DNA of 64,000 nt from Candidatus Saccharimonadia bacterium (GCA_041743505.1 JBGTMQ010000003.1:25148-89147), one strand, 5' to 3'. Counted from the first letter of the stretch, positions 3,477 to 34,823 are shown. Notes: generated by a model not told the origin, from the letters alone. A program made the numbers and translations.

Positions 3477-3497
3477 GTCTAGTTCCTCGGCCTCATC

Positions 3498-5609
<2,112 letters not shown>

Positions 5610-5815
5610 TTACCACCTGTCACATTACTCAACAAAAAGGACCTTGGAGCCCTATTAATTCTATTATAGCGTTTTGGCTTATCTGGAGCAAATAGCCGTA
5701 CAGCAATCCTCGCTAGGGCAATATACCGAACAAAAAGCGTACGGTCAAGCTGTTGAGACAATCCTTATAGAATATTGAATACATATTGGCATAAGCAGTT
5801 TGGCGTTGTACAATT

Positions 5816-7321
5816 ATGCTAATGTTCCATCAAATCGTCTCACAGCTTTCGCTCTCCCCCTCTGCCATATCAATGTTGGCCTTCTACGCCAAGCGGCTCA
5901 AGCAGGAACGCATCACCCGGTTTTTCTCGGCCTTCGCGGCCGTACTCATTGTAGGATTACAGTTTGCCACCATTCTGGCGCCGCCGGCCCCATCAAACGC
6001 CGCTTCACCCGGCGATATTATTTATGGTGGGGTTGTCTCCAAAGCCGACCTGCTCAATAAGTATGACGCCAGCCCGGAGCTTCGAGCCCTTTACGAACGG
6101 TTCGGCATCACCCGCCAGGACATGGTCAATACCACCCAGGGTCAAATTAATAGTCGCGACCGCACCCTAAACTCGCTCGGCCGTGTTCACCACGACGCCA
6201 GCGACCAACCCGTTCCCATTGGCGGCACTACCTATTGGGCCCGGTTCCTCTATAAATTTGATACCGGAGCCAACGTACAACGCGGCTCCACCTACGACGT
6301 CTTAACCGGCACCCGGTCACGCGACGGCGGCTACTTTGCCGTCATGCTGCGCTGCGGCAACCTGGTATTCAAGTCTATCCCGCCCGTACCAACGCCACCA
6401 CCTCCGCCTCCACCACCACCTACACCCAAGCCAACCCCACTCCCGACCCCGGTTCCAACCCCCATACCAGCTAAGCCAACCATGACGTGCACCGGCTTAA
6501 CCGGCAACACGAGAACCGGCCAGGTACCACTCACAGTCGCATTCATTGGCTCCGGAGTAGCCACCAACCAAACCATCACCGAGTACCAATTCAGTTTCGG
6601 CGACGGCAAAACCGCTAACCAGCCCGGCGCTACCATCTCGCATACCTACGAAACCCCCGGCGTCTACATCGCCACTCTCCAAGTAAAAGGCTCAACCGGA
6701 ACCGTATCGGCTCCCAACCCGCTTTGCTCCTACACTATTACCGTAACTCCCCCGCCCGCCGCTTTCCAAAAAGGCAAATCAGCTCTTAACCTTACCCAAA
6801 ACATTGACGCTACCACAGCTCCAGCCCGCGCCGGCGATGTCATCCGCTACATCCTAACCACTAAGAACACCGGCGGTGCCAGCGAACAGTACAGCGTGGT
6901 GGAGCACGTCGAAGACGTTCTCGAATACGCCGAAGTCACCGACCCCAATGGTGGCACGCTAACCAACGGTGTCTTAACCTGGCCCGCAGTAGCTATCCAG
7001 CCCGGCCAAACCCTCACCAAGACATTCACCGTCAAGGTCAAAGACCCGGTCCCTGCTACTCCAGTCGGCGTATCTGATAAGTTCTCCTACGACCTGCGTA
7101 TGGACAATGTTTACGGCAACACCGTCCAAATTAAATTGCAGCCACCACTCCCCAAGCAGGTAGAAGTAGCATCGGCTACCTTACCGCAAACCGGCACCGG
7201 CACCACCACCTTTATCATCTTGCTGGTATCAACCCTGACCATCTTCTTCTACCTGCGCAACCGCCAGCTGAGCACTGAAATCAAGCTCTTACGAGGTGAT
7301 TACCACGGAGGACTATCATAA
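5816..7321 (+). CDS. Sortase-anchored cell-surface protein with PKD and DUF11-like domains and a C-terminal LPQTG sorting signal
   Basis: The signal peptide probably begins at M20 (5873; KRLKQERITRFFSAFAAVLIVGLQFATILAPPAPSNA). A poly-Pro/Thr linker (PPPPPPPPTPKPTPLPTPVPTPIP) follows. The PKD-like motif is FSFGDGKT...HTYETPGVYIATLQV and the DUF11-like segment is AGDVIRYILTTKNTGG. The C-terminus is LPQTG plus a hydrophobic helix plus RNRQ. Confidence 0.75.
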   Translation: MLMFHQIVSQLSLSPSAISMLAFYAKRLKQERITRFFSAFAAVLIVGLQFATILAPPAPSNAASPGDIIYGGVVSKADLLNKYDASPELRALYERFGITRQDMVNTTQGQINSRDRTLNSLGRVHHDASDQPVPIGGTTYWARFLYKFDTGANVQRGSTYDVLTGTRSRDGGYFAVMLRCGNLVFKSIPPVPTPPPPPPPPPTPKPTPLPTPVPTPIPAKPTMTCTGLTGNTRTGQVPLTVAFIGSGVATNQTITEYQFSFGDGKTANQPGATISHTYETPGVYIATLQVKGSTGTVSAPNPLCSYTITVTPPPAAFQKGKSALNLTQNIDATTAPARAGDVIRYILTTKNTGGASEQYSVVEHVEDVLEYAEVTDPNGGTLTNGVLTWPAVAIQPGQTLTKTFTVKVKDPVPATPVGVSDKFSYDLRMDNVYGNTVQIKLQPPLPKQVEVASATLPQTGTGTTTFIILLVSTLTIFFYLRNRQLSTEIKLLRGDYHGGLS

Positions 7322-8086: not shown

Positions 8087-11000
8087 TTACTCACCAACAA
8101 TCACATCGCCTTTTTCATCAACATAGACCTCACCCTTGGCCAATTTAGGTGGCTTTTGCGTCAAAGTGGAGGCGACAGGCTCCGGCTTAGGTTTACGGTT
8201 AGCAGATGGCAATATCAACTTGCCGGGCAAAGAATCAGATTTTTGCTCTGGCTGCTCCTCGGTCTCCTCAGACTTCTCGGACATCTCAGCATGTTCCGCC
8301 GCCGGCACCGCATGCTCATGATGCTCTTCACGTGGCTCCTGAGGTTTAGAGGGCTTCTTAATATCAGCCAACCGATGACGCCTTGGCTGTTCAGCAGGCC
8401 TCTTTGACTGAGCCTCTTCTGCCTTCACGGGCAGCGTTTCGGCTTCAGGTGCTTCTGTTCTAGACTCATGCTCAGGTACCGGCGCCGGCTCTGGTGCTTC
8501 GGCCAACTTGGCCGCTCTGGCCTTAGCCACATCACTAGCCACCAAGGATTCGGCCTGCGGCAACCCCACGTCTGGTTCAAGGAATGAAACTGACGCAGGA
8601 GCTGGTTCCGGCTCAGGCTTTGGTACTGGCGCTGGCGCCGGCGCCGGCCGTGATTCCAGCTTCGGCTCAGGCCGCGGTTCCGGCTGCGGCTTCATCACCG
8701 GCTTTGACACTGGCGGTACCTGCTTAATTGGCGTCTGAACCGGCTTCACTGGGCTACCTGCCGGTCCCGGCCTGGCGCCTGGCGGCGGTGGCGCGTCAGT
8801 CTTGGCGCTCAAAGCAGCCTGTTTCCGCTCAGCCTCCAGTTCTGCCTCCAGCTCCTGCTGCAACTGGTCACGACGAGGCACAATCGGCTCAAGCGGCATG
8901 ATGACCTTTTGGTGTGTGTGAGTAAATGTGTGTTCCATAGACGGCTGGTCACTCCGGGGAGTCTCATCGTCATCCTCATCAGGCATCTGGTCCTTTGGTA
9001 TCGCCGGCCCAACCCAGTGTCTTGAAGAGTCGTCCGCTTCACCATCGTGACCTTTCTTCGAGTGGGTTGCCTCACCAGAGCCCGCCAATGCCCGGTGCTC
9101 TTTCTCCGGCTTAATGAGAGATTCACTCATCAGCTTATCAATCTCTTGCTCTGCCTGAGCCACCGGATTCTCACTGTGTCCGGACTCATCGGACGCGGGA
9201 GCGGCATTGGACTCAGGCGAAGCCTTTGGTTCGGAGTCCAAAGCCGGCACATAAGGCGATGACGTTAAGGCTTGGGCAGCCTTGCGCTTGGCTGCCGCCT
9301 CCATAACTGCAGCCAACGTCTCCTCAGTGCTACGTACGGCCACCGGAGGCTTTGGTTTGACTACTGGAGGAGGCGGAGTAGCTGGTGCTGGAGGCTCGGC
9401 CGGCTTAGGCGTCGGCAATATTGACTCCGATTTCGGAGCAGCAGATACCACCACTTCTGGTGCTAATACAGGTTTCACCGGAACCGCAGGCTTATCCTCA
9501 AACCCAACCCCTGGCGCTACCAGGTTCTCGGGTACTAGCGTGGTGCCCTCCTCTTCACTAAATTGACTCTTTTCCAGCCTTGGCGGTTCAGGTTCCGGCA
9601 ATACCGGTGCAATCGGAGTCGGCTTAGACTCCGGCATAGGAGCAGGCTCAGGCGCCGGTTCAGGAGCTGGTTTTGATACCGGCTCAGGAGCAGGTTTCAG
9701 TATTGGTTCGAAGGCTGGTTTGGGCAGCTCAACCGGCACCGGCGTGGTCTGCGACTGGCCAATAGGTGGCGCACCAATTGGCGGCGGAGCAATTACCTGG
9801 GCTAGCTCTGCTGAAGTAATATCCGACGACTGCTCGGGCGAAGCCGGCGCCACCGGAGCCGAAACCGGAGCTGAAGCGGGCATCGGCAGCAGAGCCGCGG
9901 GTGGAGAAGCCGGCGCATCAGTAGTCAAAGCAGCCGGACCAATAGGAGTCAATGGTAACGCCTTCTCAGATTTCTGATCCGGAACCAGTGTCGGAAATGG
10001 CTCATCAACTGGCCGCTCAAGTACTGTTTCCAGGCTTGGATCTACAAAATGAATAAGTGATCCTACAGCATCATCATAGCTCTGCTCCGGCTGAGCAACC
10101 GCACTGACCGGTTCAGAAACCACCGCGGTAGGTGCCACAGGTTCAGGCACTGCCGCGAGTACCGGCGTCACCACGGAAGCCGGTTTAGGCCTAAATACAG
10201 GCTCAGAAGCTGCCGGCTGATTAGAGACCATGGGCTCCGAAGCCGGATAAAGCGGCTCAGGCTCAGGTATTGGCAACGAAGACAGTGTGGTCACCGGCGA
10301 TGCTATCGCCTGAGGATCGGTAGGCTGCATCGAGGCCGGGACAGGTAGCGGCGGCTTAGGCTCTTCAATCATAGGCGCTGGCTGAATCAGCGCGGTCGCC
10401 GGAGCAGGAGGCGACACAAGAGTTGGAGCCGGCTGTACCTCTGGAGCCGGCTCTGCTATTACCGGAGTCGGCGTCGGCTCTATGACAGGCAATACCGGTG
10501 GTGGCGGAGGTGGCGCAATAGGCTGGTACACCGACGAAACCGACGCCGGAATTGGCTCCGAAGCAGCTACTGACGCTAGCTCAGCCTCAGACGGAGGGCC
10601 AATAGGAGCCGGCGGCCCGATGGGCGCTACAGGCTCGGGGGCAACATCAGGTACAGAAACCGGAACTGGTAGCGGCAAAGCCGCTTCTTCAGGCTCAGGG
10701 ACCGGCTGGGGTGCGCCCAACAAAGGAATCTCCGCCATCGGATCCATAGCAGGATCATACGGCGGTGGTGGCGGCACCGCCGGTTCTGCAGGCTGCTCAA
10801 CCGGAGCCGGTTGGGCTACCCGCGGTTCCGCACCCGGCGGAATCAGTGGGATATTCAACAGGTCATCGCTGGCACCCGACGATGCCAGCGGCACCGGACC
10901 AGGCCGGCGGCCACCGGTAATATCAGTAATCGATAACCGGTTCTGATCACCAGGAACAGGTGCCGGAGGAGCAGCACTCAGCTCAGGAAGCTCTGGCTCT

Positions 11001-13990
11001 TCAGGAATAATCGGCGAAACCGGCTCCATCAGTTGCCCAGCAGTATTAACGATTGGAGGCACATTATCCGCAGCCGGAATTCCAGGTACACCAGCATCAA
11101 CCGGCGGCGCACCAATAGGTGGCGGCGTATGGGCCAGACCCGTCCCACCCACAGGCGCCGAAGTTAGTGGCAGCGGAATGGGCGGCGCACCAATCGGCGG
11201 GGTTACCGCCGACAACGGATCCAGCGTAGGCGCTGGTAATACCGGCGTAGGCACCTGATTAGACTGTAACGCGGGCATAATCAATTCCGGTGCCGCTTGC
11301 ACCACCGGCGGTAACGGCTCTGGCGTAGGCGCAAGTGCCAGTGGCTGATTAATAGGTGGTGCGCCAATCGGCGGAGGCGTCATCGGTGCGGGCTCAGCAG
11401 CCGCAACCGGCGGCGCAGCAGCCGCCGAAACCAGTGCCGGTTGTAGCTCCGGTGCCGCAAGGACTACCGGCACCGGAGCCGGCTCTGGCGCCGGCACAAT
11501 CACCGTCGGCACAGCCGGTGCTGGCACTGCGACCGGAGCCGGAGCTGGCACAATCGGGGCCGGAACAGGAGGCGGGGGCAGACTCGGTGTCACTCCCGGC
11601 TCTCGGCCGGTCAACCTAGCCGCAATATCCGCCTCCACCACATCCTTAGCATGACCAAACTTAGCCGCGCTCAGCTGCTTAATCGCCAGCCCCAATTCCG
11701 GATTAGCCAAGCCCAGCGGCGCCAGGTTATGCACGGTAAATGGCTGGCTTGGCAGGCCACCGATCATCAACCGCATCGCCGCATGATAGTTCGGGATATT
11801 CACCAGATCCGAAGTATCAAACACCGGAGCAAACTGCTTAACCATAAACTCGGCGTCATCCGGACCCATCCGGTGCGCCACAATCGTGCCAATATTACCA
11901 AATACCGCATCCCGGATCTCAGTCGTCAATTGGCCGATAAACTGGTTTGCTACCACCAGGTTAAGCCGGTACTTTCGCGCCTCACTCAAAATACTGGCAA
12001 ACGAGTCAGTCGAAAAGTTCTGAAACTCATCCACGTACAGGCAAAAATCGTTGCGCTCGCCCTCAGGAAGGTCAGCCCGGCTCATAGCCGCAGCCTGGAG
12101 CTTAATCACAAAGATCATGCCCAAAAGCTGCGAGTTGAGCTCACCAACCTTGCCCTTGCTCAGGTTCACAATCAGGATTTTCTTGTTATCCATGATGTCG
12201 CGCAGGTTAAAGGCGCTGTTGGTCTGGCCCAAAATATTGCGCATCATCTCGTTGTTCTGGAAGGCGCCAAACTTACTCACGAACCAACCCAGCATTTCGC
12301 TCTTGTGATAATCCGAAGTCTGGCCCATTTCCTTGGTCCAGAAATCAATAACTGTCGGGTCCTTCAAATAGCGAAATTTGTGCTTGAGATAATCTGTATC
12401 AGTAAATACTTTAGGAATCTCAATAAACGTCGATCCATGCGGGTCGCTCATCAATGTCAGCGCGGCATTGCGGTACCAATGCTCATAGCGCGGCCCAATT
12501 ATACCGGTATGACCGGGATCGTACAGCTTGTACAGCATCCCGATCGTCTCTTGGATAATAAAGTCTTTTTGCGCTGGATCACTAAATTCAAACAGGTTCA
12601 AACCTAGCGGAAACTCAGTATCAGCCGGATTAAAGTACACTACGTCCTCGGCTCGGTTTTTGGGCACCATAGCCAGCAATTTTTCCGCCGTGTCACCATG
12701 CGGATCTATAAACGCAAAACCGTTGCCGGCCAGCATATCCTGCACCGCCAGGTTCTCCAGCAATGTCGACTTACCAGTCCCGGTCTGACCCAAGATGTAA
12801 GTGTGCCGGCGACGGTCCTCCACACTCAGCCGAATCTCTTTCTTAACCCCACGAAACTCGTTATAACCAAACAGCGCACCTTCAGCAGGCAACTGTGTCG
12901 GGCCATCTATCTGCTTACTCTGCTGACGCTCTACATTGCTAGTCGGTATAAACTGCGAATCCGGCAGATGAAACAACGTCGCCAACTCAACCGAATTCAA
13001 AACACTTGAGCGAAGTTCAGGCGGGAAAAACCGGAAGATAAAAGCCGTAACCAACCCCTGAACATCCACAGCCGGCAAAAATTTAAACCCATTCAAGCCC
13101 GGCCGCTCAAACAGCGCAAAAGCCGTCGCGATATCGCGTAGCAACTGCTGGCTTCGGCTCACGCTCTCTGTCGATACAAGCACCCGCACCAGCACCTCAA
13201 ATCCAGGATGCTTAGTTTTCTCCTCAACCGCTTCAATTGCCCCCAGCTCCAGATTCGACAAACCCGTCGACTGAGGCTGATGACTCTGATCCTCCGACCG
13301 CTGCTGGGTCGGGGACTTGAATGCCGCCTTAGCTATATCCATCGGCGTAATCTGCATATTGCCGGCCCGGCCCTTGCGCAGTTTAGTAGTCAAGGTAGTC
13401 GCAGACTTGACCCAGTTAGTGCTAGCCGGCCGCACCATAATTTGAATCGCCGCGCCATCACCTTTGCCCAGCGTCGACAGAGTAGTAATAATTGCTTCCA
13501 TCGGGTCACGCTCGATCTGCTCGTAGGTCGCCAGCGGATAGGCACTAGCATTTTTGAGCACCATTTCGCCACCCATGGTCGCAGCCAGCCGGCCTTCCTG
13601 GTTGAAGATATTGTGATCCTCAACTTCCTCCATACGGGCACCCGGATAAGCCGTCTGGATAGCTTTTTCAATCGTACTCACCATACCCACAGGCACCGCC
13701 GCATAAAAATGCACCAACCCGTTCGCGGCAATTAACTCCAGCGCAATATGCCGCTGTCCGTAGAACGTACTCTTAAAACCCTCCGTAGCAGTTCCGGCAA
13801 TCAAGTTATATAGCACCTCAGCGTGGCTCGTTTTCTCGCGCATAACCTCGCGTACATCCCGGCTGCCCGCCACCGTATCTTCGCTGGGTGGAGGCAAATG
13901 AATCAACACCGGCACCATCTTGAGACCGCGCTCAATCGCCTTAGCCCGCCGCAGCTTCCGCTGATATGTCCAATACGCCACACCCGCCAA
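8087..13990 (-). CDS. Giant T4SS-type P-loop ATPase (VirB4/TraC or VirD4/TraG superfamily) with an ~1100-aa C-terminal proline-rich disordered extension
   Basis: 1967 aa. The N-terminal ~800 aa carry Walker A GQTGTGKSTLLENL, a following FAFIDPHGD motif, Walker B LYVDEFQNF, and ARKYRLNLVVANQF, a T4SS ATPase signature (RKYGxxxxxxTQ-like). The remainder is Pro/Ala/Val/Glu-rich with four PPIGAPP(I/V) repeats, EPAP/KPxP tracts and an acidic DEDDDE segment. The annotated start is TTG. An in-frame hydrophobic segment (IVIVVIIFLLLAAGL) and a strong SD GGAGGTGA lie just upstream, between 13991 and 14065. The true start is therefore probably a non-canonical codon further upstream. Confidence 0.7.
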   Translation of the reverse strand: MAGVAYWTYQRKLRRAKAIERGLKMVPVLIHLPPPSEDTVAGSRDVREVMREKTSHAEVLYNLIAGTATEGFKSTFYGQRHIALELIAANGLVHFYAAVPVGMVSTIEKAIQTAYPGARMEEVEDHNIFNQEGRLAATMGGEMVLKNASAYPLATYEQIERDPMEAIITTLSTLGKGDGAAIQIMVRPASTNWVKSATTLTTKLRKGRAGNMQITPMDIAKAAFKSPTQQRSEDQSHQPQSTGLSNLELGAIEAVEEKTKHPGFEVLVRVLVSTESVSRSQQLLRDIATAFALFERPGLNGFKFLPAVDVQGLVTAFIFRFFPPELRSSVLNSVELATLFHLPDSQFIPTSNVERQQSKQIDGPTQLPAEGALFGYNEFRGVKKEIRLSVEDRRRHTYILGQTGTGKSTLLENLAVQDMLAGNGFAFIDPHGDTAEKLLAMVPKNRAEDVVYFNPADTEFPLGLNLFEFSDPAQKDFIIQETIGMLYKLYDPGHTGIIGPRYEHWYRNAALTLMSDPHGSTFIEIPKVFTDTDYLKHKFRYLKDPTVIDFWTKEMGQTSDYHKSEMLGWFVSKFGAFQNNEMMRNILGQTNSAFNLRDIMDNKKILIVNLSKGKVGELNSQLLGMIFVIKLQAAAMSRADLPEGERNDFCLYVDEFQNFSTDSFASILSEARKYRLNLVVANQFIGQLTTEIRDAVFGNIGTIVAHRMGPDDAEFMVKQFAPVFDTSDLVNIPNYHAAMRLMIGGLPSQPFTVHNLAPLGLANPELGLAIKQLSAAKFGHAKDVVEADIAARLTGREPGVTPSLPPPPVPAPIVPAPAPVAVPAPAVPTVIVPAPEPAPVPVVLAAPELQPALVSAAAAPPVAAAEPAPMTPPPIGAPPINQPLALAPTPEPLPPVVQAAPELIMPALQSNQVPTPVLPAPTLDPLSAVTPPIGAPPIPLPLTSAPVGGTGLAHTPPPIGAPPVDAGVPGIPAADNVPPIVNTAGQLMEPVSPIIPEEPELPELSAAPPAPVPGDQNRLSITDITGGRRPGPVPLASSGASDDLLNIPLIPPGAEPRVAQPAPVEQPAEPAVPPPPPYDPAMDPMAEIPLLGAPQPVPEPEEAALPLPVPVSVPDVAPEPVAPIGPPAPIGPPSEAELASVAASEPIPASVSSVYQPIAPPPPPPVLPVIEPTPTPVIAEPAPEVQPAPTLVSPPAPATALIQPAPMIEEPKPPLPVPASMQPTDPQAIASPVTTLSSLPIPEPEPLYPASEPMVSNQPAASEPVFRPKPASVVTPVLAAVPEPVAPTAVVSEPVSAVAQPEQSYDDAVGSLIHFVDPSLETVLERPVDEPFPTLVPDQKSEKALPLTPIGPAALTTDAPASPPAALLPMPASAPVSAPVAPASPEQSSDITSAELAQVIAPPPIGAPPIGQSQTTPVPVELPKPAFEPILKPAPEPVSKPAPEPAPEPAPMPESKPTPIAPVLPEPEPPRLEKSQFSEEEGTTLVPENLVAPGVGFEDKPAVPVKPVLAPEVVVSAAPKSESILPTPKPAEPPAPATPPPPVVKPKPPVAVRSTEETLAAVMEAAAKRKAAQALTSSPYVPALDSEPKASPESNAAPASDESGHSENPVAQAEQEIDKLMSESLIKPEKEHRALAGSGEATHSKKGHDGEADDSSRHWVGPAIPKDQMPDEDDDETPRSDQPSMEHTFTHTHQKVIMPLEPIVPRRDQLQQELEAELEAERKQAALSAKTDAPPPPGARPGPAGSPVKPVQTPIKQVPPVSKPVMKPQPEPRPEPKLESRPAPAPAPVPKPEPEPAPASVSFLEPDVGLPQAESLVASDVAKARAAKLAEAPEPAPVPEHESRTEAPEAETLPVKAEEAQSKRPAEQPRRHRLADIKKPSKPQEPREEHHEHAVPAAEHAEMSEKSEETEEQPEQKSDSLPGKLILPSANRKPKPEPVASTLTQKPPKLAKGEVYVDEKGDVIVGE

Positions 13991-16320: not shown

Positions 16321-19053
16321 TTATGCCCGGACCTTAGCCCCAAATTTCCTCGATAAGATTGCCAAAGCCTTTCGCTCAATATCAGCCGCTTCCGCGTCAG
16401 TAGGGGTTCGGTCAGCATGCGCCACCTTCAAATGCAACGCCAAACTCTTGTGGCCGGCCGGCACGCCTTCACCGTAATAATCGCTCACAAAACTAACCTG
16501 GGTCTGCGGCAAGTCAGCCAAGGCCACCGCCACATCCTGCCAAGCCGTACTCGCCGGCACCACAACAGCCAGGTCCCGCCCGACACTGGGGAAGCGCTCC
16601 AAGCCGGCAAACGCGCGCACCCCAAACCGTTTCAACAAAGCGTCAGCATCCAGCTCCACATACGCGGCCTCACCCGCAACCTTCAGCCGCCGCAGCCCCT
16701 CAGGATCAAGTTGACCAATCGTACCCAGCTGCCGTCCGTCCAGCTTAATTTTGGCCACCCGGCCACCAGCATACAGCGCCGGAACCTCCGCCACCGGCTC
16801 CACCGCCAGATTCACACCGAGCTCATCAGCCAACGTATCCAGCAAGCCCTTGGCATGCTGGTACGATTCATCCGGCCGCGCCACCATAATACCCAAATGC
16901 ATTGGCTCATCCGGCTGGTCGGCGGCGCCACGCTTTTCAAACACCCGGCTCAGTTCATAGAAGGCCAGCTCAGCAGCGTACCCACGGTTGCGCGCTAGCA
17001 CACTCAGGTGGCTGGCCAAAAGAGAGGACCGCAAGTACGCCTGCTCAGTCGATAGCGGATTTCTCAGTTTCAAATGCTTCTTCGCGTCCAAACCAGCGCC
17101 GGCCAATTGTTCTTCACTCACAAATGAGTATGTCATCACTTCAAACAACCCGGCGCCATACAACACCTGCTGCAACCGCCGCCGCTTGGACCGCTCCGAG
17201 TCAAATGACACCTCCTGCGGCTGCCACGCCGGAATCTTAGCCGGCACCCGCTCGTAACCCAGCACACGGACAATTTCTTCCACCAAATCCTGAGCTTCTT
17301 TTAGGTCCGGACGCCACCAGGGAATAGCCGGCACCGACAAATAATCATCCAAATTATCCACGTAACGTCGCGCACCCAGGTACTCCGAATGTTTGGTTAT
17401 GACCTCCAACACAGCTTCGTGCACGCCCGGCTGACCAGCATCCGATGCCTGAACGATCTTGCCATCACCAACATACACAGCCACATGGGCAACACCTTCA
17501 CGCTCTTTAGAATCAAGCTTAACCCAATCGCCACCAGCAAATAACAAATCACCCGGCACCAGCTCAGATTGCTTAACCGGCCACCCGGACTTAAATTGCT
17601 GATGCGCCGTATGCCCAATATTCACGCCAATCAGGGAATAGAGGTAGTCGGTTAAGTACGAGCAGTCAAACGCATCGGTCCCATCGGTTTTATAACGAGC
17701 CCCAAACTTATACGGCTTTCCGATGTGGCTCCGAGCCTCCTGAGCCACATCAAATACCCGGGCCTCAATCTGCAGCCGGGCTAGCGTCTGGACAGCCTCA
17801 TGACCCAATACCTCAAAACCCAATAACCGGTTCAGCAATGACCTTCGCAGACCAATCCTTTGCACCCAGGGCCACACGTTCAGCTGCCGCTGAACCGCCC
17901 CAACCCGGCCACCCGCCACTTCAACCAGTAACTCTACTGCCCGCGCCACCGCCACCGGCGCCAATTGCACCGGCAATCCGCGCTCAAATCGTGCGCTGGC
18001 TTCAGTGCGCAAGCCATGCCGCTTGGCCATCTTGCGCACTGTCGCAGCATCAAATGTAGCTGCCTCAAGCACAATTTCCTTGGTCTTTTCATCAACCTGC
18101 GTGCTGGCTCCACCCATCAAGCCGGCCAGCCCGATCGGTCCGGTAGCATCGGCAATAACCAGATCCTGATGGCTTAATTTCCGCTCCACACCGTCCAATG
18201 TCACTAGTTTTTCGCCTTGCCGAGCCAAACGCGCTTCGAGCGGCAGCCTAACCTTAGCAGCATCGTACGCGTGCAGCGGCTGACCGAATTCCAAATTCAC
18301 ATAGTTAGTCACATCCACTATCGGACTAATCGACCGCACACCCACCGCCTGCAACGCACTTGTCATCCAACGAGGGGAGGGGGCCTTCACATCCACCTGC
18401 AACGTCGCCAGCATAAACTGGCTTGCCTTCATGTCATCCAACATCAACTTTACGCCAGCATCCGTCTCCGCCTCCGGTTGCGGCTCCGGCAAATCCTTAA
18501 GCTCCGCGCCGGCAATCGCCCCGATTTCGCGCGCCAAACCAACCACGCTCAACAGATCAAACCGGTTGGCTTGGGTCTTGATATCCACGATTCCACCACT
18601 GGGATATATGTCGCACAATCTTGCCCCAACCACAGCCGTATCTGACAGCTCCAGAATCTGCTCGTGATTTGTCCCTATACCGAGCTCACGCTCACTACAC
18701 AGCATTCCTTCGCTTAACTCACCGCGCAACTTAGCCGCAGCTATCTTGTCGCCACCTGGGAGGGTAGAGCCGACTTGAGCAAAGGCTACCTTAAGCCCTT
18801 TTCGGACATTCGGCGCTCCGCAAACCACCCGCACTTCCCGATCACCCGCATCAACGAACACTAAACTTAGTCGGTCTGCCTTTGGATGCTGCATAACTTT
18901 TTTAACCAGCGCTACGATGACATTTCTATCTATCGGCTCTGAAGAAATAAATTGTTCAACCTCAATTCCAGCCTGCTCCAATGCCTCCACAATCTCATGG
19001 TCCGACATTGTGCGACGTAGCCATTCTTTAACCCAAGGTGTATAAATCTTCAT
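16321..19053 (-). CDS. pheT: Phenylalanine--tRNA ligase beta subunit with an inserted NlpC/P60 domain
   Basis: The N-terminal tRNA-binding domain, B3/4, the B5 motifs (LLGFEV...; VPAIPWWRPDL...DLVEEIVRVLGYERVPA), the core and the C-terminal FDX-ACB-like region are all recognisable. The start is probably M11 (MKIYTPWVKEW) at 19053; the ORF track begins at 19083. Residues ~442-575 (17359-17760) form an NlpC/P60-like block: GKPYKFG, FDCSYL, HTAHQQ, PGDLLFAG, HVAVYVGDGKIVQA. Confidence 0.9.
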   Translation of the reverse strand: MKIYTPWVKEWLRRTMSDHEIVEALEQAGIEVEQFISSEPIDRNVIVALVKKVMQHPKADRLSLVFVDAGDREVRVVCGAPNVRKGLKVAFAQVGSTLPGGDKIAAAKLRGELSEGMLCSERELGIGTNHEQILELSDTAVVGARLCDIYPSGGIVDIKTQANRFDLLSVVGLAREIGAIAGAELKDLPEPQPEAETDAGVKLMLDDMKASQFMLATLQVDVKAPSPRWMTSALQAVGVRSISPIVDVTNYVNLEFGQPLHAYDAAKVRLPLEARLARQGEKLVTLDGVERKLSHQDLVIADATGPIGLAGLMGGASTQVDEKTKEIVLEAATFDAATVRKMAKRHGLRTEASARFERGLPVQLAPVAVARAVELLVEVAGGRVGAVQRQLNVWPWVQRIGLRRSLLNRLLGFEVLGHEAVQTLARLQIEARVFDVAQEARSHIGKPYKFGARYKTDGTDAFDCSYLTDYLYSLIGVNIGHTAHQQFKSGWPVKQSELVPGDLLFAGGDWVKLDSKEREGVAHVAVYVGDGKIVQASDAGQPGVHEAVLEVITKHSEYLGARRYVDNLDDYLSVPAIPWWRPDLKEAQDLVEEIVRVLGYERVPAKIPAWQPQEVSFDSERSKRRRLQQVLYGAGLFEVMTYSFVSEEQLAGAGLDAKKHLKLRNPLSTEQAYLRSSLLASHLSVLARNRGYAAELAFYELSRVFEKRGAADQPDEPMHLGIMVARPDESYQHAKGLLDTLADELGVNLAVEPVAEVPALYAGGRVAKIKLDGRQLGTIGQLDPEGLRRLKVAGEAAYVELDADALLKRFGVRAFAGLERFPSVGRDLAVVVPASTAWQDVAVALADLPQTQVSFVSDYYGEGVPAGHKSLALHLKVAHADRTPTDAEAADIERKALAILSRKFGAKVRA

Positions 19054-19206
19054 CCCATAACTCCAATCATTCGACCATTCCATTCCAACGGCGCACCCAC
19101 TTCCGCGCCACCAAGCATGCCAGTAACTACACCCGTCCGTACTGTATCTAAACTTATCCTCGGGTACGCATCGAGCATATTTGTAGTTTCTACAACACTC
19201 ATCATA

Positions 19207-28276: not shown

Positions 28277-28341
28277 CAATCCAAACATGCCACCGGGGCA
28301 CAATCAAGTACTCCGGTGGCATAAATCAATCGAAATAATCC

Positions 28342-28417
28342 TGGTCGGGGTGAAAGGACTTGAACCTTCGACCTCAGCGTCCCGAACGCTGCGCGCTACC
28401 AACTGCGCCACACCCCG
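28342..28417 (-). tRNA. tRNA-Pro (anticodon CGG)
   Basis: Hand-folded cloverleaf: acceptor CGGGGTG/CACCCCG, D-arm GCGC-AGTTGGTA-GCGC, anticodon stem CAGCG/CGCTG with loop TTCGGGA (anticodon CGG, G37), T-arm GAAGG-TTCAAGT-CCTTT, discriminator A, encoded CCA. 76 nt. Confidence 0.9.
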
Positions 28418-28440: not shown

Positions 28441-29346
28441 TTACTGCATTTGGCCCCCTTCGTCCAGCTCAACATGCATGATTTGAGCAGCTGTCAGGAC
28501 ATAAGCATGAAGCCAGGCCAACCGGCCGGTAAAAAATGTCGATGATTCAACCGCCTTCTGAAGCTGGGCAACCTGCTCCCGGTGACCATCCAGCCCGCCC
28601 TCAGACTTTGGTGTCTCAATAGCTACCTCACCGTCATAAAACGTGTATCCCAATGCGCCAAGACCCTGCCAACGCATCATCCGCAGCCGGGAGATCACCA
28701 GTGATTCAAGAGTACCCACAATAAGATCACCCGCCACCGACGACTTCAGCACCTCAGCCGCTGGCTCTGCAGGTCGAAAATACTCACCGAGCGTATCCGT
28801 CATTAACCCCATATCAACCGGTTGTAATGAATCGGCCAACACCTTGAGCCGGGCCAGCCCTGAGCGAAAACCAGGCGCCACCCTGAAGAAACCCACCACA
28901 TTAACCGGCTCTACCACAAACGTTGGCCGCTGATCCATCGCGTAACCCTCAGCCACCTCAGCTTCAATGCGCTCACGGGCTGGCTCTACCTCCCGGTCCA
29001 TGTACAGCGCCAGCTGCTGACGGCCTTCAGCATATTCCATCGGCGCCCCGACAACCCGGTGAAGCACCCGGTCCACATAAGCCGTTGTAAAAACTCCATA
29101 GCCCAAATGAAACTGTGATGGAACTCCTACAACAAACAGTTCCTCAGCCCGAGCCGCTCCATTAATAGATTGCCAAAGATTCGTTGAAACGGCCGGCCGG
29201 CCCTCGGCAAACCGCAGCCCTGATTGCAACAGATCGGCAGTGCCCATAGCCGTATCACCGGAGCCGGCACCCGGCACCACAAACCGGACTGCGGACAACG
29301 TTTGATCGCCATGCCCAGATACTAGTTTAAGTCGGGACAAATTCAC
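28441..29346 (-). CDS. Hypothetical protein, last gene of the helicase/SprT-like operon
   Basis: 301 aa. There is a 1-nt gap to the upstream SprT-like gene. No recognisable family. Confidence 0.5.
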   Translation of the reverse strand: MNLSRLKLVSGHGDQTLSAVRFVVPGAGSGDTAMGTADLLQSGLRFAEGRPAVSTNLWQSINGAARAEELFVVGVPSQFHLGYGVFTTAYVDRVLHRVVGAPMEYAEGRQQLALYMDREVEPARERIEAEVAEGYAMDQRPTFVVEPVNVVGFFRVAPGFRSGLARLKVLADSLQPVDMGLMTDTLGEYFRPAEPAAEVLKSSVAGDLIVGTLESLVISRLRMMRWQGLGALGYTFYDGEVAIETPKSEGGLDGHREQVAQLQKAVESSTFFTGRLAWLHAYVLTAAQIMHVELDEGGQMQ

Positions 29347-29347
29347 C

Positions 29348-29836
29348 TTATTCTCCTAAAAACCAAAAGGGTCTTGGTACTTTAATAACTCGGGCCGACG
29401 ACAGCCTCAGCGCCGATTGACGGCGGCTTGCTAACTCACGAGCCACCAGCGCCAACCAATGATCCTTAAGCCAGCACTTTTGCTCTAGATACAAGTCCAG
29501 CAGCCCCCGCTCGGCAAACTCACGCCTCATCACCCCACCGGCGTGCGGATGTTGCTGGCGCTGACTCAGCGGCGAGTTAAAGCCGTGGGCGTAATGAGTC
29601 AGCTCATGCACCAAAGTAGCCAATATCACTGACTCAGGCACCTCAGGCAACCGGAACAATCCATTCATCGTAATGACACTGACATTCGGATCGCGCGGGT
29701 CCAAACCAATACTGCCAAGCCGGCGCTTAGCTCGCCGCCCAAAAATAATCCGCACGTCATTTTGCTGCGGCACATCAGCAAAATAGCTATCCCACGTGCT
29801 GTCCAGCAACTGCTGAAGCCAAGCTTCGTCACGCAT
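29348..29836 (-). CDS. SprT/WLM/DUF45-like HExxH zinc metallopeptidase
   Basis: HELTHYAHGF motif, then further His/Glu residues. The start is placed at MRDEAWLQQ (29836), which overlaps the helicase stop as ATGCGTGA. The ORF track extends to 29962, overlapping the helicase. Confidence 0.5.
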   Translation of the reverse strand: MRDEAWLQQLLDSTWDSYFADVPQQNDVRIIFGRRAKRRLGSIGLDPRDPNVSVITMNGLFRLPEVPESVILATLVHELTHYAHGFNSPLSQRQQHPHAGGVMRREFAERGLLDLYLEQKCWLKDHWLALVARELASRRQSALRLSSARVIKVPRPFWFLGE

Positions 29837-32708
29837 ATTGCTCTTGCTCCTCTGGCTCCTCACCATAATACGTAAAGGCTGGGCACTGATGAAACTCGGA
29901 CACCGGCGCCGGCGCAAAATCCCTCGCCCGAATCCGCTCTGCCAGAGCGCCCAATTTATCACGATGGTTAGCCATAATTCGAGCCGTCAGCTGGGCGCTA
30001 CCCTCCGCACCGGTAACCACATAATCCAGTGTCACCAACGCCGGGGACTGCCCGGTCATCTCCTTATAAGCCATCGCGTATGTCCGAAGCTGGAAATTCT
30101 CCTTGGCATCAACCGCCACCTTCTCCGCATCACGCTTAGAGCCGGTCTTGAAATCCCGGATCTCAATCCCGTCAGGCGTTTCGAAGTACGCATCAATCCG
30201 CCCGCGCAATCGCAGTTTGTAGTCCGGCAACTCCAGTGTAATCTTCAGCTCACTGCCAAGCACGTGACGTGCCTCCCGTTCCTCCCGCTGAACAAACCTC
30301 TGCAATGTCTCATGCGCTTTATCCCAAGCAGCCACCGCTTGAGCCCGCGACTCATATCCCCGGTCGCTCCACAATTCATCCAACCGCACATCAAGTTCAG
30401 CCAATCCAATCTGTTCGTCACGGATTTTGGCTTCATAATAGGCCTGGATCGCTCCATGGATAGCCGTGCCAAAAGCCAGTTGCGGCCCAAATGGTTGAAC
30501 GATGCCCAACACATATTGTAAATAAAACTCGTGCGGACATCGTCGGTAGGCGTCTAACGCTCCCACACCCAACTCAATCCAGCCTTCAATCGTTTCAAAT
30601 GGCAGCCGCCGGTCGGGCAGCTCATGCTTGAGCGGATAAAATCGTTGTAAACGCTGCATCGCTCTATCAATGCTCTTAGTTTCTCCAGCCCCCCGGGCAG
30701 CCGGTGGCATCTCACCCAACAACTCCGTCACCAGGGGGCTAAGAGCTTGCCGCTGGCCACCAGCTGTCTCGCTAGCCGCCGAAATTATTACCGATCGCTT
30801 AGCTCTCGTCACTGCCACATACATCAACCGGCGCTGCTCATGCTCTGGAGGCAATTCTGTACCGGCCGTCATCAGCTCCGTCGGCGGCTCAAGCCCGCTA
30901 CTACTGCGCTCAGCCCAAGCACGTGCCGTACACCCGACGACGTAAACGGTATCAAACTCCAAACCTTTTGAAGCGTGTACCGTCAGAAGCTGCACGCCCT
31001 CAGCCTCACCCAAAGCCTCAGGGGCCTCAAGCTGTGGCGGCTTTGGAAATGTAGCCAGATACCCAGCCAACGTCGGATCCAATGCCACAGTTTCATAGTC
31101 TTGCATCTGCGCTAGCAGCATATGCAAATCCTCAAACACCCGGATAATCCGGTCGCTTCCCTCGGCCGCCACTACCAACCGCTCACTCAAACCGGTCTCA
31201 AATACCAACCGGTAAGCCAGCTGACTGACGTTTAGCTCAGCCGCCCACGCCCGCCAAATATCTAGCTTTTTCGTCAGCTCTTGCGCTTGACTGTCACCAT
31301 CCTCTGCCGCTACCCGGATAATTTCCTCCGGTCCGGCTAATTCCGACTGAGACCGCTCCACAATAGTCCGGTATGCCGCCGTCTTCCAGCCCACAAAAGG
31401 CCCCAACACGACATGCGCAATCGCTTCAGGCTTTGCGCGGTGACCTAGCCACTCCAGCAAGTACCATAGATTGATAATTTCACGCTGTTCAAAAATATTA
31501 ACTTCAGTTGAAAGTGTAAACGGCACATCATGCGCCCGCAACGACTTGGCATAACTACGAAGTACCGCGTTCGAGCGGGCCAGAATAGCAATACTCGCCG
31601 GCACTGCGCCCCCGCTCAGGCTCTTCATGACATCATCTACTACACCCGACTGCTCATCTGCCGGCGTACGGTATCCCACAAATGTCACCTTTGCATCCTG
31701 ATCTTGAGCTGTTAGCCGCTTGTTCAAATGCAGCATCGCCTCAAGCCGGTTCGGATCATTGTTACCAATGAGCCGGTAAGCCGCATCCAGAATCGGCTGG
31801 CCGGACCGGTAGTTTTTTACTAATACTGCCGGTTCATCGACCTTAAAATGCGCGGCAAAATCCATAATATTCGCAATATCTGCACCCCGGAAACCATAGA
31901 TCGCCTGGTCATCATCCCCCACTGCAAAAATGTTGCCGCCCACCGGGACAAATGTGCGCAACAGCTGGTCTTGAACCGGACTCGTATCCTGATATTCATC
32001 CACTAAAACATACCGGTACTGCTTCGTCAGCCGCTCAGCCAAGTTCGGACGCTCGCGCATCGCCCCCAAAGGAATAGCAAGTTGGTCGTTGTAATCGTAC
32101 GTCCCAGTCTCAGCCTTAACGCTCTCGTACAAAGTAAATAAAGCAGCTAGATCCCGCTGTTCCAAAATATCATATTCATGCTGCTCACCGTCTTCGGCCT
32201 TCAAGCCGGCAACAAAATCAGCATATCGCCCGGCACCAATTCCCCCATTTTGCAACCGCTCAATATAACGAACAATCTGCTCCAGGAAATCATAATTATG
32301 GCTTTTTAATGGATAATATTCCAACACAACCCGCTCAATATGTTGTTGCAAAAGCAACGTTTTTTGAGTTGTATTAAGCAAACCACCGCGGGTTGAGCGG
32401 CCAATATGCGACGCAAACCGGCCCAACAACTCAGCACCAAAGGCGTTAAACGTCAACACCGGCACCTGGAACGACTGCCAACCAACTAGATCATATAGCC
32501 GGTCAGCCATCTCCCGGGCCGCCTTCTCAGTAAATGTTAGAGCCAAAACTTCCCCCGGCTTGGCTTGACCTTGCTCAATCAACCGCGCAATCCGCCGCGT
32601 GATTACGCCGGTCTTGCCAGTGCCTGCTCCGGCCACCACAAGCAACGCACCCTCGGTGTGTTCAACCGCAGCCCGCTGCTCATCATTAAGCCCACCTAGA
32701 ATATCCAT
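29829..32708 (-). CDS. UvrD/PcrA-like SF1 helicase fused to a C-terminal RecB-family PD-(D/E)xK nuclease
   Basis: 959 aa. N-terminal Walker A AGAGTGKTGVITRRIA and the UvrD motifs through VTRAKRSV. The C-terminus has GRIDAYFE (motif II), IRDFKTGS (D-x-K) and QLRTYAMAY (QhxxY). Confidence 0.8.
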   Translation of the reverse strand: MDILGGLNDEQRAAVEHTEGALLVVAGAGTGKTGVITRRIARLIEQGQAKPGEVLALTFTEKAAREMADRLYDLVGWQSFQVPVLTFNAFGAELLGRFASHIGRSTRGGLLNTTQKTLLLQQHIERVVLEYYPLKSHNYDFLEQIVRYIERLQNGGIGAGRYADFVAGLKAEDGEQHEYDILEQRDLAALFTLYESVKAETGTYDYNDQLAIPLGAMRERPNLAERLTKQYRYVLVDEYQDTSPVQDQLLRTFVPVGGNIFAVGDDDQAIYGFRGADIANIMDFAAHFKVDEPAVLVKNYRSGQPILDAAYRLIGNNDPNRLEAMLHLNKRLTAQDQDAKVTFVGYRTPADEQSGVVDDVMKSLSGGAVPASIAILARSNAVLRSYAKSLRAHDVPFTLSTEVNIFEQREIINLWYLLEWLGHRAKPEAIAHVVLGPFVGWKTAAYRTIVERSQSELAGPEEIIRVAAEDGDSQAQELTKKLDIWRAWAAELNVSQLAYRLVFETGLSERLVVAAEGSDRIIRVFEDLHMLLAQMQDYETVALDPTLAGYLATFPKPPQLEAPEALGEAEGVQLLTVHASKGLEFDTVYVVGCTARAWAERSSSGLEPPTELMTAGTELPPEHEQRRLMYVAVTRAKRSVIISAASETAGGQRQALSPLVTELLGEMPPAARGAGETKSIDRAMQRLQRFYPLKHELPDRRLPFETIEGWIELGVGALDAYRRCPHEFYLQYVLGIVQPFGPQLAFGTAIHGAIQAYYEAKIRDEQIGLAELDVRLDELWSDRGYESRAQAVAAWDKAHETLQRFVQREEREARHVLGSELKITLELPDYKLRLRGRIDAYFETPDGIEIRDFKTGSKRDAEKVAVDAKENFQLRTYAMAYKEMTGQSPALVTLDYVVTGAEGSAQLTARIMANHRDKLGALAERIRARDFAPAPVSEFHQCPAFTYYGEEPEEQEQYA

Positions 32709-32780
32709 ACCAAGATTGTATCAGGAATTACCCTTGGGTTGATCATGAGTGCTATAATAGGCCATAAGAGGTTCTATTAG

Positions 32781-34823
32781 GTGTCAGAACTCATTACCCG
32801 CACAGCCCGGTTAGTCCCTTACGCCAAACGGCCAAAGCAGGTTCCTAGTTTTGTGACCGCCTATAGCTATGAGCCGCTGGCCGAAGAGCCCGGCGCCGAT
32901 CTCGGCAACCTATTTGTCATCATCGAAGTGCTTGTCTCCGGCCGGTCCAGCGAAGACGTAGCTGACTTGGTCATCAGTACCATGGCCGACCACTACTACA
33001 ACCAAGCCACCGATCAATCCGACCCGCTACGCCGGTTCGAAGCTGCCATCAAGGCCACCAATCAAGAGCTGGCCAACTACGTCAATCAAGGCAATGCCGC
33101 CTGGATCGGCAAAATGAGCGCTGTAGTCGCCATCCAAACCGGATCACAGCTGCACCTGACTCAAACAGGCTCGGCAGAAGCATTCTTGTATCGCGGCAAG
33201 TCAGCTGCCCGCATCTCGGCCAACCAAGGAGCCGCCCGCCCAACCGCTCCCAGCAAGACCTTCGGTTCCATCGCCAGTGGCGATCTGGAGCCCGGCGACC
33301 GGCTGCTGCTAGCCACCCCCGCGCTCGTCCATCAGCTCTCCTTGACCAAGCTTAAAACCATTGTCAGCGACACCAGCCCCAACAATGCTATTGCTGAAAT
33401 TACCCAACTCCTGCGCGGCGGCGCGTCCGGCCGTATCGCTGCACTGGTCATTGAGATCACGACGCCGGAACTAGCCGCCTTGCAAGTCCGGTCTGAGGAA
33501 CCAAGCGAGATCCAGCTCGGCACCCCGGACAACGTGCTTGAGGCCGCCAAAATGGCCGCCGCACCAATCGCCCAAGCCACAGTCAGTTCCAGCCGGCGAG
33601 CCGGCGCTGCCGCTAAAACCGGCTGGAAAAAAAGCCGGCCTCACCTGCAACAAGCGCTCCAGGTTACCACCGGCTTCATCCGCGAGCAACTAGCCCACAA
33701 GGACTCGCGCAAGCGACTATTCGTCGCCGCCGCTATTCTGCTCGGGTTCATCATCGTCCTCTGGCAGTGGCAAACTGGCACTGTCCGCACCAAGCAATTA
33801 GAAACCCGCTATCAAAACGACTATAACCAATACCAGCTAGCCGTCACCGCCGCCAACAATGGCGACAAAACCACCGCCCGGAACATGCTCTCCAGGCTCC
33901 AAGGCGAGCTGACTGGCCTGTTTCAAGCTCCCGGCCGCAAAAGCCTCGATGCCAAACTCAAGCAATCCGCCACTGGACCTAAGTCAGTCGCCGAGCTGGC
34001 TGGCCTAACTGCCACTAAGCTAGACCAAATTGAAGGCCTACACCGCGTCGACGTCAGTACCGTCGCTTCATTTAGTAGTATAAAAAACAGCAAGCCAACC
34101 CATTTTGAGCTCGCCGGCAACAAAGCCTACACCTTCGACGAAGGTAAAAACCCGTCCCTCTACATTGCAAATATCACAACAAATATCATCCAGAAATCCA
34201 AGGCAGACACTTCACGGCTTGGCGCTATCACTGCTACCACCATATCGAGCAGCTCAGATGGTATCTACCTCTTAACCGACAAGCCATCAGTCTGGTTTTA
34301 CAACTTTGCCGCCGATTCCCTAACCGAACAGTCGGTCGGTGTAGGCCAATGGCCGGCAGGCACAGCCATCGCATCATATGCAGGCAATCTCTATATCCTG
34401 GGAGGTGGCATGGTCTACAAACATGTCCGCACCTACAGCGGCTATTCGCCCAAAGCCCCCTACCTGGCTCCACAGACCCCTGGCCTAGCCAACGCCACCG
34501 CCATGGCAGTCGATGGTATGGTGTTTCTATTATCACCCTCAGGGTTGAGAGAATTCTCAGCCGGCGCCTTCAAGCAAGCCGCGGACACTCCTTCAACACT
34601 CAAGAACGCGCGCCTAATACGGTCAAGCGGCGGCGGCAACTCCGTCATCGCCATAGCCGGCGATACCAAGCGCATTGGTTTCTGGGATAACACCAAGACT
34701 CTAAAGTTCGCCAAGCAATACGAGCTAGGCGGCGTCTCGTCCCTGCACGACGCCGCCTACGACCCCAAGACCCAAACTGTTTACGCGTTAGTGAACAGCC
34801 GGCTCGTGAAGTTTACGATCTAA
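32781..34823 (+). CDS. Membrane-anchored PP2C/SpoIIE-like phosphatase with a large C-terminal extracytoplasmic domain
   Basis: The N-terminal ~240 aa show PP2C-like blocks: LFVIIEVLVSG...; GSAEAFLYRGKSAARIS; GDLEPGDRLLLATPAL. A single TM follows (LFVAAAILLGFIIVLWQW), then a ~330-aa beta-rich domain. The call is tentative. Confidence 0.5.
   Translation: MSELITRTARLVPYAKRPKQVPSFVTAYSYEPLAEEPGADLGNLFVIIEVLVSGRSSEDVADLVISTMADHYYNQATDQSDPLRRFEAAIKATNQELANYVNQGNAAWIGKMSAVVAIQTGSQLHLTQTGSAEAFLYRGKSAARISANQGAARPTAPSKTFGSIASGDLEPGDRLLLATPALVHQLSLTKLKTIVSDTSPNNAIAEITQLLRGGASGRIAALVIEITTPELAALQVRSEEPSEIQLGTPDNVLEAAKMAAAPIAQATVSSSRRAGAAAKTGWKKSRPHLQQALQVTTGFIREQLAHKDSRKRLFVAAAILLGFIIVLWQWQTGTVRTKQLETRYQNDYNQYQLAVTAANNGDKTTARNMLSRLQGELTGLFQAPGRKSLDAKLKQSATGPKSVAELAGLTATKLDQIEGLHRVDVSTVASFSSIKNSKPTHFELAGNKAYTFDEGKNPSLYIANITTNIIQKSKADTSRLGAITATTISSSSDGIYLLTDKPSVWFYNFAADSLTEQSVGVGQWPAGTAIASYAGNLYILGGGMVYKHVRTYSGYSPKAPYLAPQTPGLANATAMAVDGMVFLLSPSGLREFSAGAFKQAADTPSTLKNARLIRSSGGGNSVIAIAGDTKRIGFWDNTKTLKFAKQYELGGVSSLHDAAYDPKTQTVYALVNSRLVKFTI

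Follow-up and report, generated by a model that had tools for sequence, protein, structure and literature searches.

In this work, we describe a compact operon found within a 64,000-nucleotide (nt) stretch of DNA from a Candidatus Saccharimonadia bacterium (JBGTMQ010000003.1); the whole stretch is referred to below as the window. The source names of homologues place it in Saccharimonadia (TM7, Patescibacteria/Candidate Phyla Radiation, CPR). The operon consists of a gene for a helicase-nuclease of 959 amino acids (aa), a gene for a small protein carrying a HExxH motif and a gene for a 301-aa protein, and is followed by a tRNA-Pro (Table 1). An earlier note on this DNA had proposed this layout, and all its elements were found at the coordinates claimed there. 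Direct reading of the sequence likewise confirmed that the stop of the helicase gene and the start of the HExxH gene overlap by 8 nt, the junction reading CAATATGCGTGA; the next junction, TAA-G-GTG, leaves a spacer of 1 nt.

Conservation was analyzed by scanning one genome per GTDB species, which returned 34 loci, all Saccharimonadia-like, and brought the set, together with three loci collected earlier, to 37. According to tblastn, a helicase-nuclease lies directly upstream of the HExxH gene in 35 of the 36 loci holding upstream DNA, the exception being L036, and the start/stop overlap, ranging from 1 to 14 nt, is kept in 33 out of 35; ATGA is the commonest form, and some overlaps measure 8 or 11 nt. 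The pairing survives both a fall in helicase identity to 30–34% and a change of flanking genes. Across loci, protease identity is 49–81%, against 30–72% for the helicase, indicating that the protease is under the stronger constraint. In 24 of 28 related loci a tRNA-Pro comes after the operon, encoded on the same strand; where the 301-aa gene is missing, it usually lies about 40–180 nt past the protease gene. Because gene order, overlap and tRNA-Pro are retained at these frequencies, the arrangement is more than a matter of chance, and the pairing proposed in the earlier note has held up. The same note had taken the three genes as one unit; since only some 10 of the 37 loci possess the 301-aa gene, the conserved unit is the pair and not the trio. 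In seven of the loci having it, the 301-aa gene starts 1–2 nt past the protease stop, and in the other three the tblastn match begins at most 10 nt away.

The HExxH protein has 613 homologs, 65–88% identical to it, all recorded as "hypothetical" and with no Pfam domain. The family is small and self-contained, since its profile, searched against 1.84 billion cluster representatives, recruited 204 clusters and reached neither canonical SprT nor YgjP. The motif itself, HELTH, corresponds to residues 77–81 (window 29594–29608). In a set of 115 diverse members E78 never varies, while H77, H81, G85, S88, H98, E106 and R110 are each conserved in at least 90%; conservation of H84 is confined to the Saccharimonadia clade. 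The HExxH helix and a downstream His, the probable third ligand, which characterize SprT-like proteins (PF10263), are both present, and the metal site is likely formed by H77, H81 and H98, with E78 as the catalytic base. In the AlphaFold 2 (AF2) model (mean predicted local distance difference test, pLDDT, 85.8) an N-terminal helix is followed by three strands, the active-site helix, two further helices and a disordered basic tail. The isoelectric point (pI) is 9.6 for the protein and 12 for the tail; neither a signal peptide nor a transmembrane segment could be recognized in the sequence.

Profile and model comparisons identify this protein as a distant, unannotated SprT-like zincin, placed at the edge of the SprT-like family. 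Among the 115 members, Pfam matches at E ≤ 0.1 were obtained with the SprT-like model in 80 cases (best 3.6e-7), with YgjP-like in 19, with WLM in 9 and with M78 in 3; ten members were also scanned separately, and P0172, at 26.1 bits, was the sole one shown past the SprT-like cut-off. Alignment of the family to enterobacterial SprT by hhalign, spanning the strand and the active-site helix, gave a 60% probability and E 8.5e-5, and the top Foldseek match of the model in the PDB is the protease domain of human SPRTN (6mdw, E 8e-3, probability 1.0, 108 columns). It is because of these three lines of comparison that a SprT-like relationship is proposed. Searches of PDB sequences with the family profiles gave nothing meaningful, the best results being a chance match to CDKL3 and one to MJ1213 (E 0.25), which we take to be a selecase.

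The protease of the window ends with the peptide PRPFWF (residues 154–159, window 29360–29377, minus strand). Throughout the clade (the window and L004–L037) the tail begins as a basic disordered linker and closes with the conserved peptide PKPFWF[IL]G. This peptide was found in 30 of 33 helicase-linked proteins, as opposed to none of 48 unlinked single-domain relatives; other CPR relatives end with a basic stretch and then a hydrophobic or aromatic C-terminus, such as RRIIIKWI. Such a distribution of the PKPFWF tail fits a docking role.

The partner of the protease is a fresh example of an already known type of enzyme. Pfam recognizes in it UvrD-helicase (7e-65), UvrD_C (3e-34) and PDDEXK_1 (1.5e-28) domains; the helicase motifs of superfamily 1 (SF1) are all intact (GTGKT29, DEYQD237, GDDDQ264, TVHASKG576, VAVTRA631), as are those of the nuclease (GRID836-839, D852-x-K854 (DFK852) and Q873xxxY877 (QLRTY873)). 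The protein shares with AddA, RecB and AdnB a UvrD-like SF1 motor and a C-terminal RecB-type PD-(D/E)xK nuclease of the D...(D/E)xK...QxxxY pattern, and its nuclease part, when searched alone, has AdnB as nearest relative (0.0046). It differs from the AdnAB, AddAB and RecBCD enzymes in its motor, the best PDB sequence relatives of which are PcrA (4.5e-57) and UvrD (2.6e-52), with AdnB (3e-32) and AddA (1.6e-19) far behind. PcrA, UvrD and Rep are accessory helicases able to displace proteins. All the NCBIfam equivalog cut-offs were missed (addA_Gpos 141 vs 708 bits, recB 167 vs 696, pcrA 296 vs 911, uvrD 246 vs 1144), and the Fe-S (iron-sulfur) cysteines are lacking as well: with only 3 Cys in the whole protein, an Fe-S cluster is not present. 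As to a partner subunit (AddB, AdnA, RecC or RecD), no second UvrD/PDDEXK gene was found in the window, or adjoining the helicase in about 35 loci. Both the fusion of a UvrD/PcrA-type motor to a RecB-family nuclease in a single chain and the absence of an adjacent AddB/AdnA-like partner had been pointed out in the earlier note, and both observations stand.

Relatives of the HExxH protein occur in other contexts. Some are 280–300 aa long and feature the catalytic domain plus a degenerate copy devoid of HExxH. In five distinct loci (L038/39, L040, L042, L074, L076), found in Chthonomonadales-like (Armatimonadota-type) contigs, such as L040 from Chthonomonadales (e.g. 2947–5837), the two-domain gene comes immediately after that of a helicase about 680 aa long, overlapping it by 4 nt in L040 and 8 nt in L042. 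DEAD_2 and Helicase_C_2 domains are found in these helicases. Among NCBIfam models the repair helicase YoaA matches them best, at 566–590 bits, not reaching the cut-off of 680, with DinG next, and the L040 helicase has four Fe-S cysteines. The family is thus coupled a second time, independently, to a helicase of DNA repair, here of the YoaA/DinG type and unrelated to the first. FANCJ belongs to the same DinG/XPD/YoaA family. Single-domain relatives in other CPR lineages have different neighbors. LeuRS is encoded upstream in 6 of 10 sampled loci, the downstream gene, overlapping by 8–11 nt, encodes ComEA or a metallo-beta-lactamase, and Sua5 and TsaD were each met once. The leuS-HExxH-comEA arrangement, in which the comEA start overlaps the HExxH stop by 8–11 nt, was found in at least four loci (L090, 655–4306; L105, 296–3880; L102; L091), while in other CPR loci a small metallo-beta-lactamase gene takes the comEA position. 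A helicase linkage common to the whole family was considered, and was rejected on the basis of the metagenome sample.

As an accessory of the pair the 301-aa protein is optional, and its gene is fused to the same translational unit. As anticipated, no motif could be recognized in it: there is no match in Pfam, NCBIfam or PADLOC, and a profile search of PDB sequences also returned none. Its 30 homologs, 36–59% identical, are all from Saccharimonadia. The AF2 model is very confident (pLDDT 91.8, predicted template modeling score 0.91), and Foldseek found no structural neighbor for it, the best E values being 1.6 in the PDB and 0.33 among the BFVD viral models; on this model, the protein may represent a new fold restricted to Saccharimonadia. 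A reading of some of its residues as an R-S-E triad of the ADP-ribosyltransferase type was dropped, the candidate residues not being conserved in the alignment.

The coordinates of the operon and of the features around it are reported in Table 1.

Table 1. Features of the helicase-protease operon and its surroundings (window coordinates)
Feature	Position	Strand	Basis or remark
Helicase-nuclease, 959 aa	32708..29829	-	Open reading frame (ORF) and Pfam
PcrA/UvrD-type SF1 motor of the helicase-nuclease	30771-32690 (residues 7-646)	-	Pfam
RecB/AdnB-type PD-(D/E)xK nuclease, C-terminal in the 959-aa protein	29880-30566 (residues 715-943)	-	Pfam
Predicted SprT-like minimal zincin (HExxH), 162 aa	ATG 29836, stop 29348	-	ORF, motif
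Start/stop overlap ATGCGTGA, 8 nt	29829..29836	-	Helicase TGA within protease codons 1-3; direct sequence reading
301-aa orphan protein, variable third gene	GTG 29346 to 28441	-	1 nt past the protease TAA (29350-29348)
tRNA-Pro(CGG)	28417..28342	-	ARAGORN; Rfam tRNA 67.5 bits; 23 nt past the last ORF
Terminator-like hairpin, then T-rich tail, 3' of the tRNA	28302..28286	-	Consensus scan, pattern match only
Divergent intergenic region, 72 nt, upstream of the helicase	32709..32780	.	Sequence reading

Within the divergent intergenic region a TACAAT hexamer, resembling a -10 box, is found at 32720–32715, 6 nt ahead of the helicase ATG, and was not called by the promoter scan. Since no Shine-Dalgarno sequence lies between this hexamer and the nearby ATG, the operon transcript may be leaderless. 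An Rfam scan matched the tRNA only, and no regulatory RNA. The window shares with related genomes the order ArgRS, divergent 680-aa protein, helicase, HExxH, (301-aa), tRNA-Pro, MarR, RmuC, TrpRS, and its genes are of the housekeeping or envelope type, including TrpRS, RmuC, MarR, an alpha/beta hydrolase, a fatty-acid desaturase, ArgRS, gyrase, PheST and an L,D-transpeptidase. Synteny with ArgRS, RmuC, MarR and TrpRS, PADLOC matches limited to a generic GajB and the absence of viral copies all indicate that the locus is part of the core genome and not an island, a mobile element or a defence element. Viral contigs were scanned twice for relatives of the protease, none being found, and a phage origin was rejected.

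A few further observations were made in the window. The divergent 680-aa protein (32781–34823, plus strand) is syntenic with the helicase in about 30 related loci; it has no Pfam family and features a weakly PP2C-like N-terminus, one transmembrane helix and a repeat-rich C-terminus. It was considered as a possible AddB-like partner and rejected, being a membrane protein without nuclease or helicase signature. The beta subunit of phenylalanyl-tRNA synthetase (16321–19083, minus strand) contains, between B3_4 and B5, an NlpC/P60 cysteine-peptidase insert (residues 455–549, 53 bits), and a weak NlpC/P60 match is also seen in the PheT of a related genome (L002). The GC skew of the plus strand is strongly and uniformly negative (about -0.2) over the whole window (1–64000), and most genes lie on the minus strand. 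A 1967-aa ORF (8087–13990, minus strand) has a G+C content of 0.58–0.61, above that of its surroundings.

The reading which best accommodates the observed gene anatomy, the intact motifs, the conserved translational coupling, the remote SprT-like relationship and the second link to YoaA/DinG is that of a core-genome operon encoding a helicase-coupled, DNA-directed protease, although we hold it tentatively; the proteolytic activity, the dependence on DNA, the contact with the helicase and the nature of the substrate are all features which we infer from anatomy and context. It is suggested by the order and overlap of the two genes, kept despite divergent helicases and changing flanks, and by the constraint on the protease, stronger than on its partner and including the putative active site; by the two-domain relatives, placed directly behind a YoaA/DinG-type helicase; by the distribution of the PKPFWF tail between linked and unlinked proteins; and by the overlap, in other CPR lineages, with comEA, another gene of DNA-binding function. 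A further argument comes from vertebrates, where FANCJ loads on single-stranded DNA (ssDNA), translocates into a DNA-protein crosslink (DPC) and unfolds the crosslinked protein, enabling its cleavage by SPRTN (PMC12279946).

According to the mechanism we propose, the operon would make, in fixed proportion, a 3'-5' PcrA/UvrD-type motor equipped with a nuclease of the RecB type, together with a zinc protease that is small, basic and SprT-like. The motor would load on ssDNA, meet a protein bound to DNA covalently or very tightly, push against this obstacle and partly unfold it; the protease, held at the motor or at the DNA by its basic linker and by the clade-specific C-terminal PKPFWF, would then cut the obstacle down. 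Repair would be completed by the nuclease, which could resect the DNA once the block has been trimmed, together with the recombination or excision machinery. The pair might, in this way, do in bacteria what FANCJ and SPRTN do together, the former unfolding a crosslinked protein which the latter cuts.

Several findings weigh against such an interpretation. The correlation between tail and helicase is confounded by phylogeny, and compact CPR genomes often have overlapping housekeeping genes. Of the 17 two-domain loci whose upstream sequence is long enough, about 12 lack a helicase, and no UvrD- or DinG-type helicase was found within 5 kb of the 40-odd single-domain loci of CPR other than Saccharimonadia. 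The match to 6mdw is weak, with a template modeling score of 0.48, and the other PDB matches are no better than E 0.09. The earlier description of the protein as SprT/WLM/DUF45-like is in fact correct only in part: SprT-like is indeed the closest family, by profile and by the best fold match, but the window protein itself scores 13.9 bits (E 0.052) against the Pfam model, under the gathering threshold of 25.6 bits, and, having 1 Cys in 162 aa, it has no counterpart to the Zn-binding domain (ZBD) or Zn ribbon through which SPRTN and bacterial SprT bind DNA.

Comparison with known systems helps to place the protein. It shares with SPRTN and Wss1 the HExxH zincin core with a downstream His, SPRTN providing the best fold match, and a basic region of DNA-binding-like character; moreover, its gene is linked to that of a ssDNA-translocating helicase, and the gene of its relatives to a helicase of the DinG/XPD family, recalling the cooperation with FANCJ (PMC12279946). 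In contrast to SPRTN and Wss1, it is a protein of 162 aa with neither the Zn-binding subdomain nor UBZ, SIM, PIP or SHP modules; there is no ubiquitin system; the partnership is encoded by operon coupling; and the similarity stays below the Pfam threshold. Closer in size is bacterial SprT, that of E. coli consisting of PF10263 and PF17283, with which the strand, loop and HELxH core can be aligned, and a "PH[GA]" His past the active-site helix is found both in the enterobacterial SprT consensus and in the alignment of the window family. Unlike enterobacterial SprT, which carries PF17283, the window protease has no C-terminal Cys4 Zn ribbon, and it belongs to a separate small family of 204 clusters, the profile of which falls short of canonical SprT. 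We know of no established function for bacterial SprT.

The main alternative is that of a housekeeping protease functionally independent of the helicase, acting on some other cytosolic substrate, its adjacency and overlap being a frozen accident of operon compaction in CPR. We consider this unlikely, yet deserving of attention, since in other CPR the gene follows leuS (6 out of 10 sampled) or tsaD, or precedes comEA, a metallo-beta-lactamase hydrolase gene or sua5, with no helicase within 5 kb, most two-domain relatives have no helicase neighbor and the whole neighborhood in the window is of the housekeeping type. An accident, however, does not readily explain why the coupling of the pair outlasts deep divergence and changes in the flanking genes, nor the independent coupling to a non-homologous repair helicase in another phylum; the probability of two such events by chance, among a handful of context types, would be around 1e-3, a rough estimate that was inferred and not computed. 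Appreciably less probable is a regulatory protease directed at its own operon partners, which would mature, limit or destroy the helicase-nuclease, the 301-aa protein possibly serving as inhibitor or substrate. YgjP/COG1451-type zincins are recurrently linked to HsdR helicase-nucleases, and HsdR is limited by ClpXP; this precedent, the tight stoichiometric co-translation and the fusion of an optional third gene to the same translational unit are all compatible with regulation. The HExxH family, though, also occurs without helicase or 301-aa partner, the 301-aa gene is absent from most loci, and no conserved linker resembling a cleavage site is evident. The parallel with YgjP/COG1451 and HsdR, a small HExxH protein encoded beside a polypeptide joining nuclease and translocase, is limited in addition by the preference of the HExxH family for another Pfam model and by the context of the window gene, the core genome and not a restriction-modification locus.

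The remaining explanations appear weaker still. A role in DNA uptake or nucleotide salvage, with the helicase-nuclease degrading imported DNA and the protease taking part in the competence pathway, is improbable: CPR bacteria do scavenge DNA, a processive helicase-nuclease could supply nucleotides and the leuS-HExxH-comEA loci of other CPR lineages would find an explanation, but ComEA lies outside the cytoplasm and the HExxH protein shows neither signal peptide nor transmembrane segment, the comEA link is seen in few loci, and leuS adjoins com/holA genes in many bacteria anyway. That the protein is not a protease at all, but a metal-dependent nucleotide hydrolase of the YgjP type sharing the same HExxH fold, is very improbable. 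The SprT-like and YgjP-like Pfam families are part of one clan, and the 19 YgjP-like members mentioned above have a best match of 8.1e-5 (PF01863, DUF45); yet all of them stay under the gathering threshold of 26 bits, SprT-like matches are four times as frequent and stronger, and the window protein, whose top structural match is SPRTN, has no YgjP match whatsoever. A YgjP-type identity, the outcome by which the earlier note would have been contradicted, is thus a weaker fit by sequence than a SprT-like one. The least probable explanation is an anti-phage module resembling Gabija or Nhi, made of a helicase-nuclease and a protease effector. Such combinations do exist in defence systems, and the helicase matches the GajB models of PADLOC at 5e-82; this is, however, generic UvrD similarity, not accompanied, as in Gabija, by the OLD-family nuclease GajA, the protease, the 301-aa protein and the 680-aa neighbor have no PADLOC match, and in about 35 genomes the locus occupies the same place in the core gene order, without viral copies.

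Tolerance of DPCs in bacteria is known to proceed through nucleotide excision repair and recombination, nuclease-based routes which are the only ones backed by genetics, and E. coli strains lacking the cytosolic ATP-dependent proteases are not sensitized to crosslinkers (PMC6945406). Our literature searches returned no paper in which a SprT-like protease of bacteria is described as coupled to a helicase. It is conceivable, albeit doubtful in its full extent, that operon coupling, together with a docking peptide at the C-terminus, has made a previously undescribed SprT-like family the partner of a UvrD-nuclease in Saccharimonadia and of YoaA/DinG in bacteria of the Armatimonadota type, the helicase unfolding the adduct for the protease as a prokaryotic equivalent or forerunner of FANCJ-SPRTN, and the 301-aa protein being an accessory with a new fold. 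The 301-aa protein itself deserves to be flagged, for it combines a very confident model with no known structural relative. For a conserved CPR gene so far recorded as "hypothetical", a plausible role may now be offered; and a SprT-like protease tied to two different repair helicases would provide a testable, two-protein candidate for the proteolytic repair of DPCs or roadblocks in bacteria.

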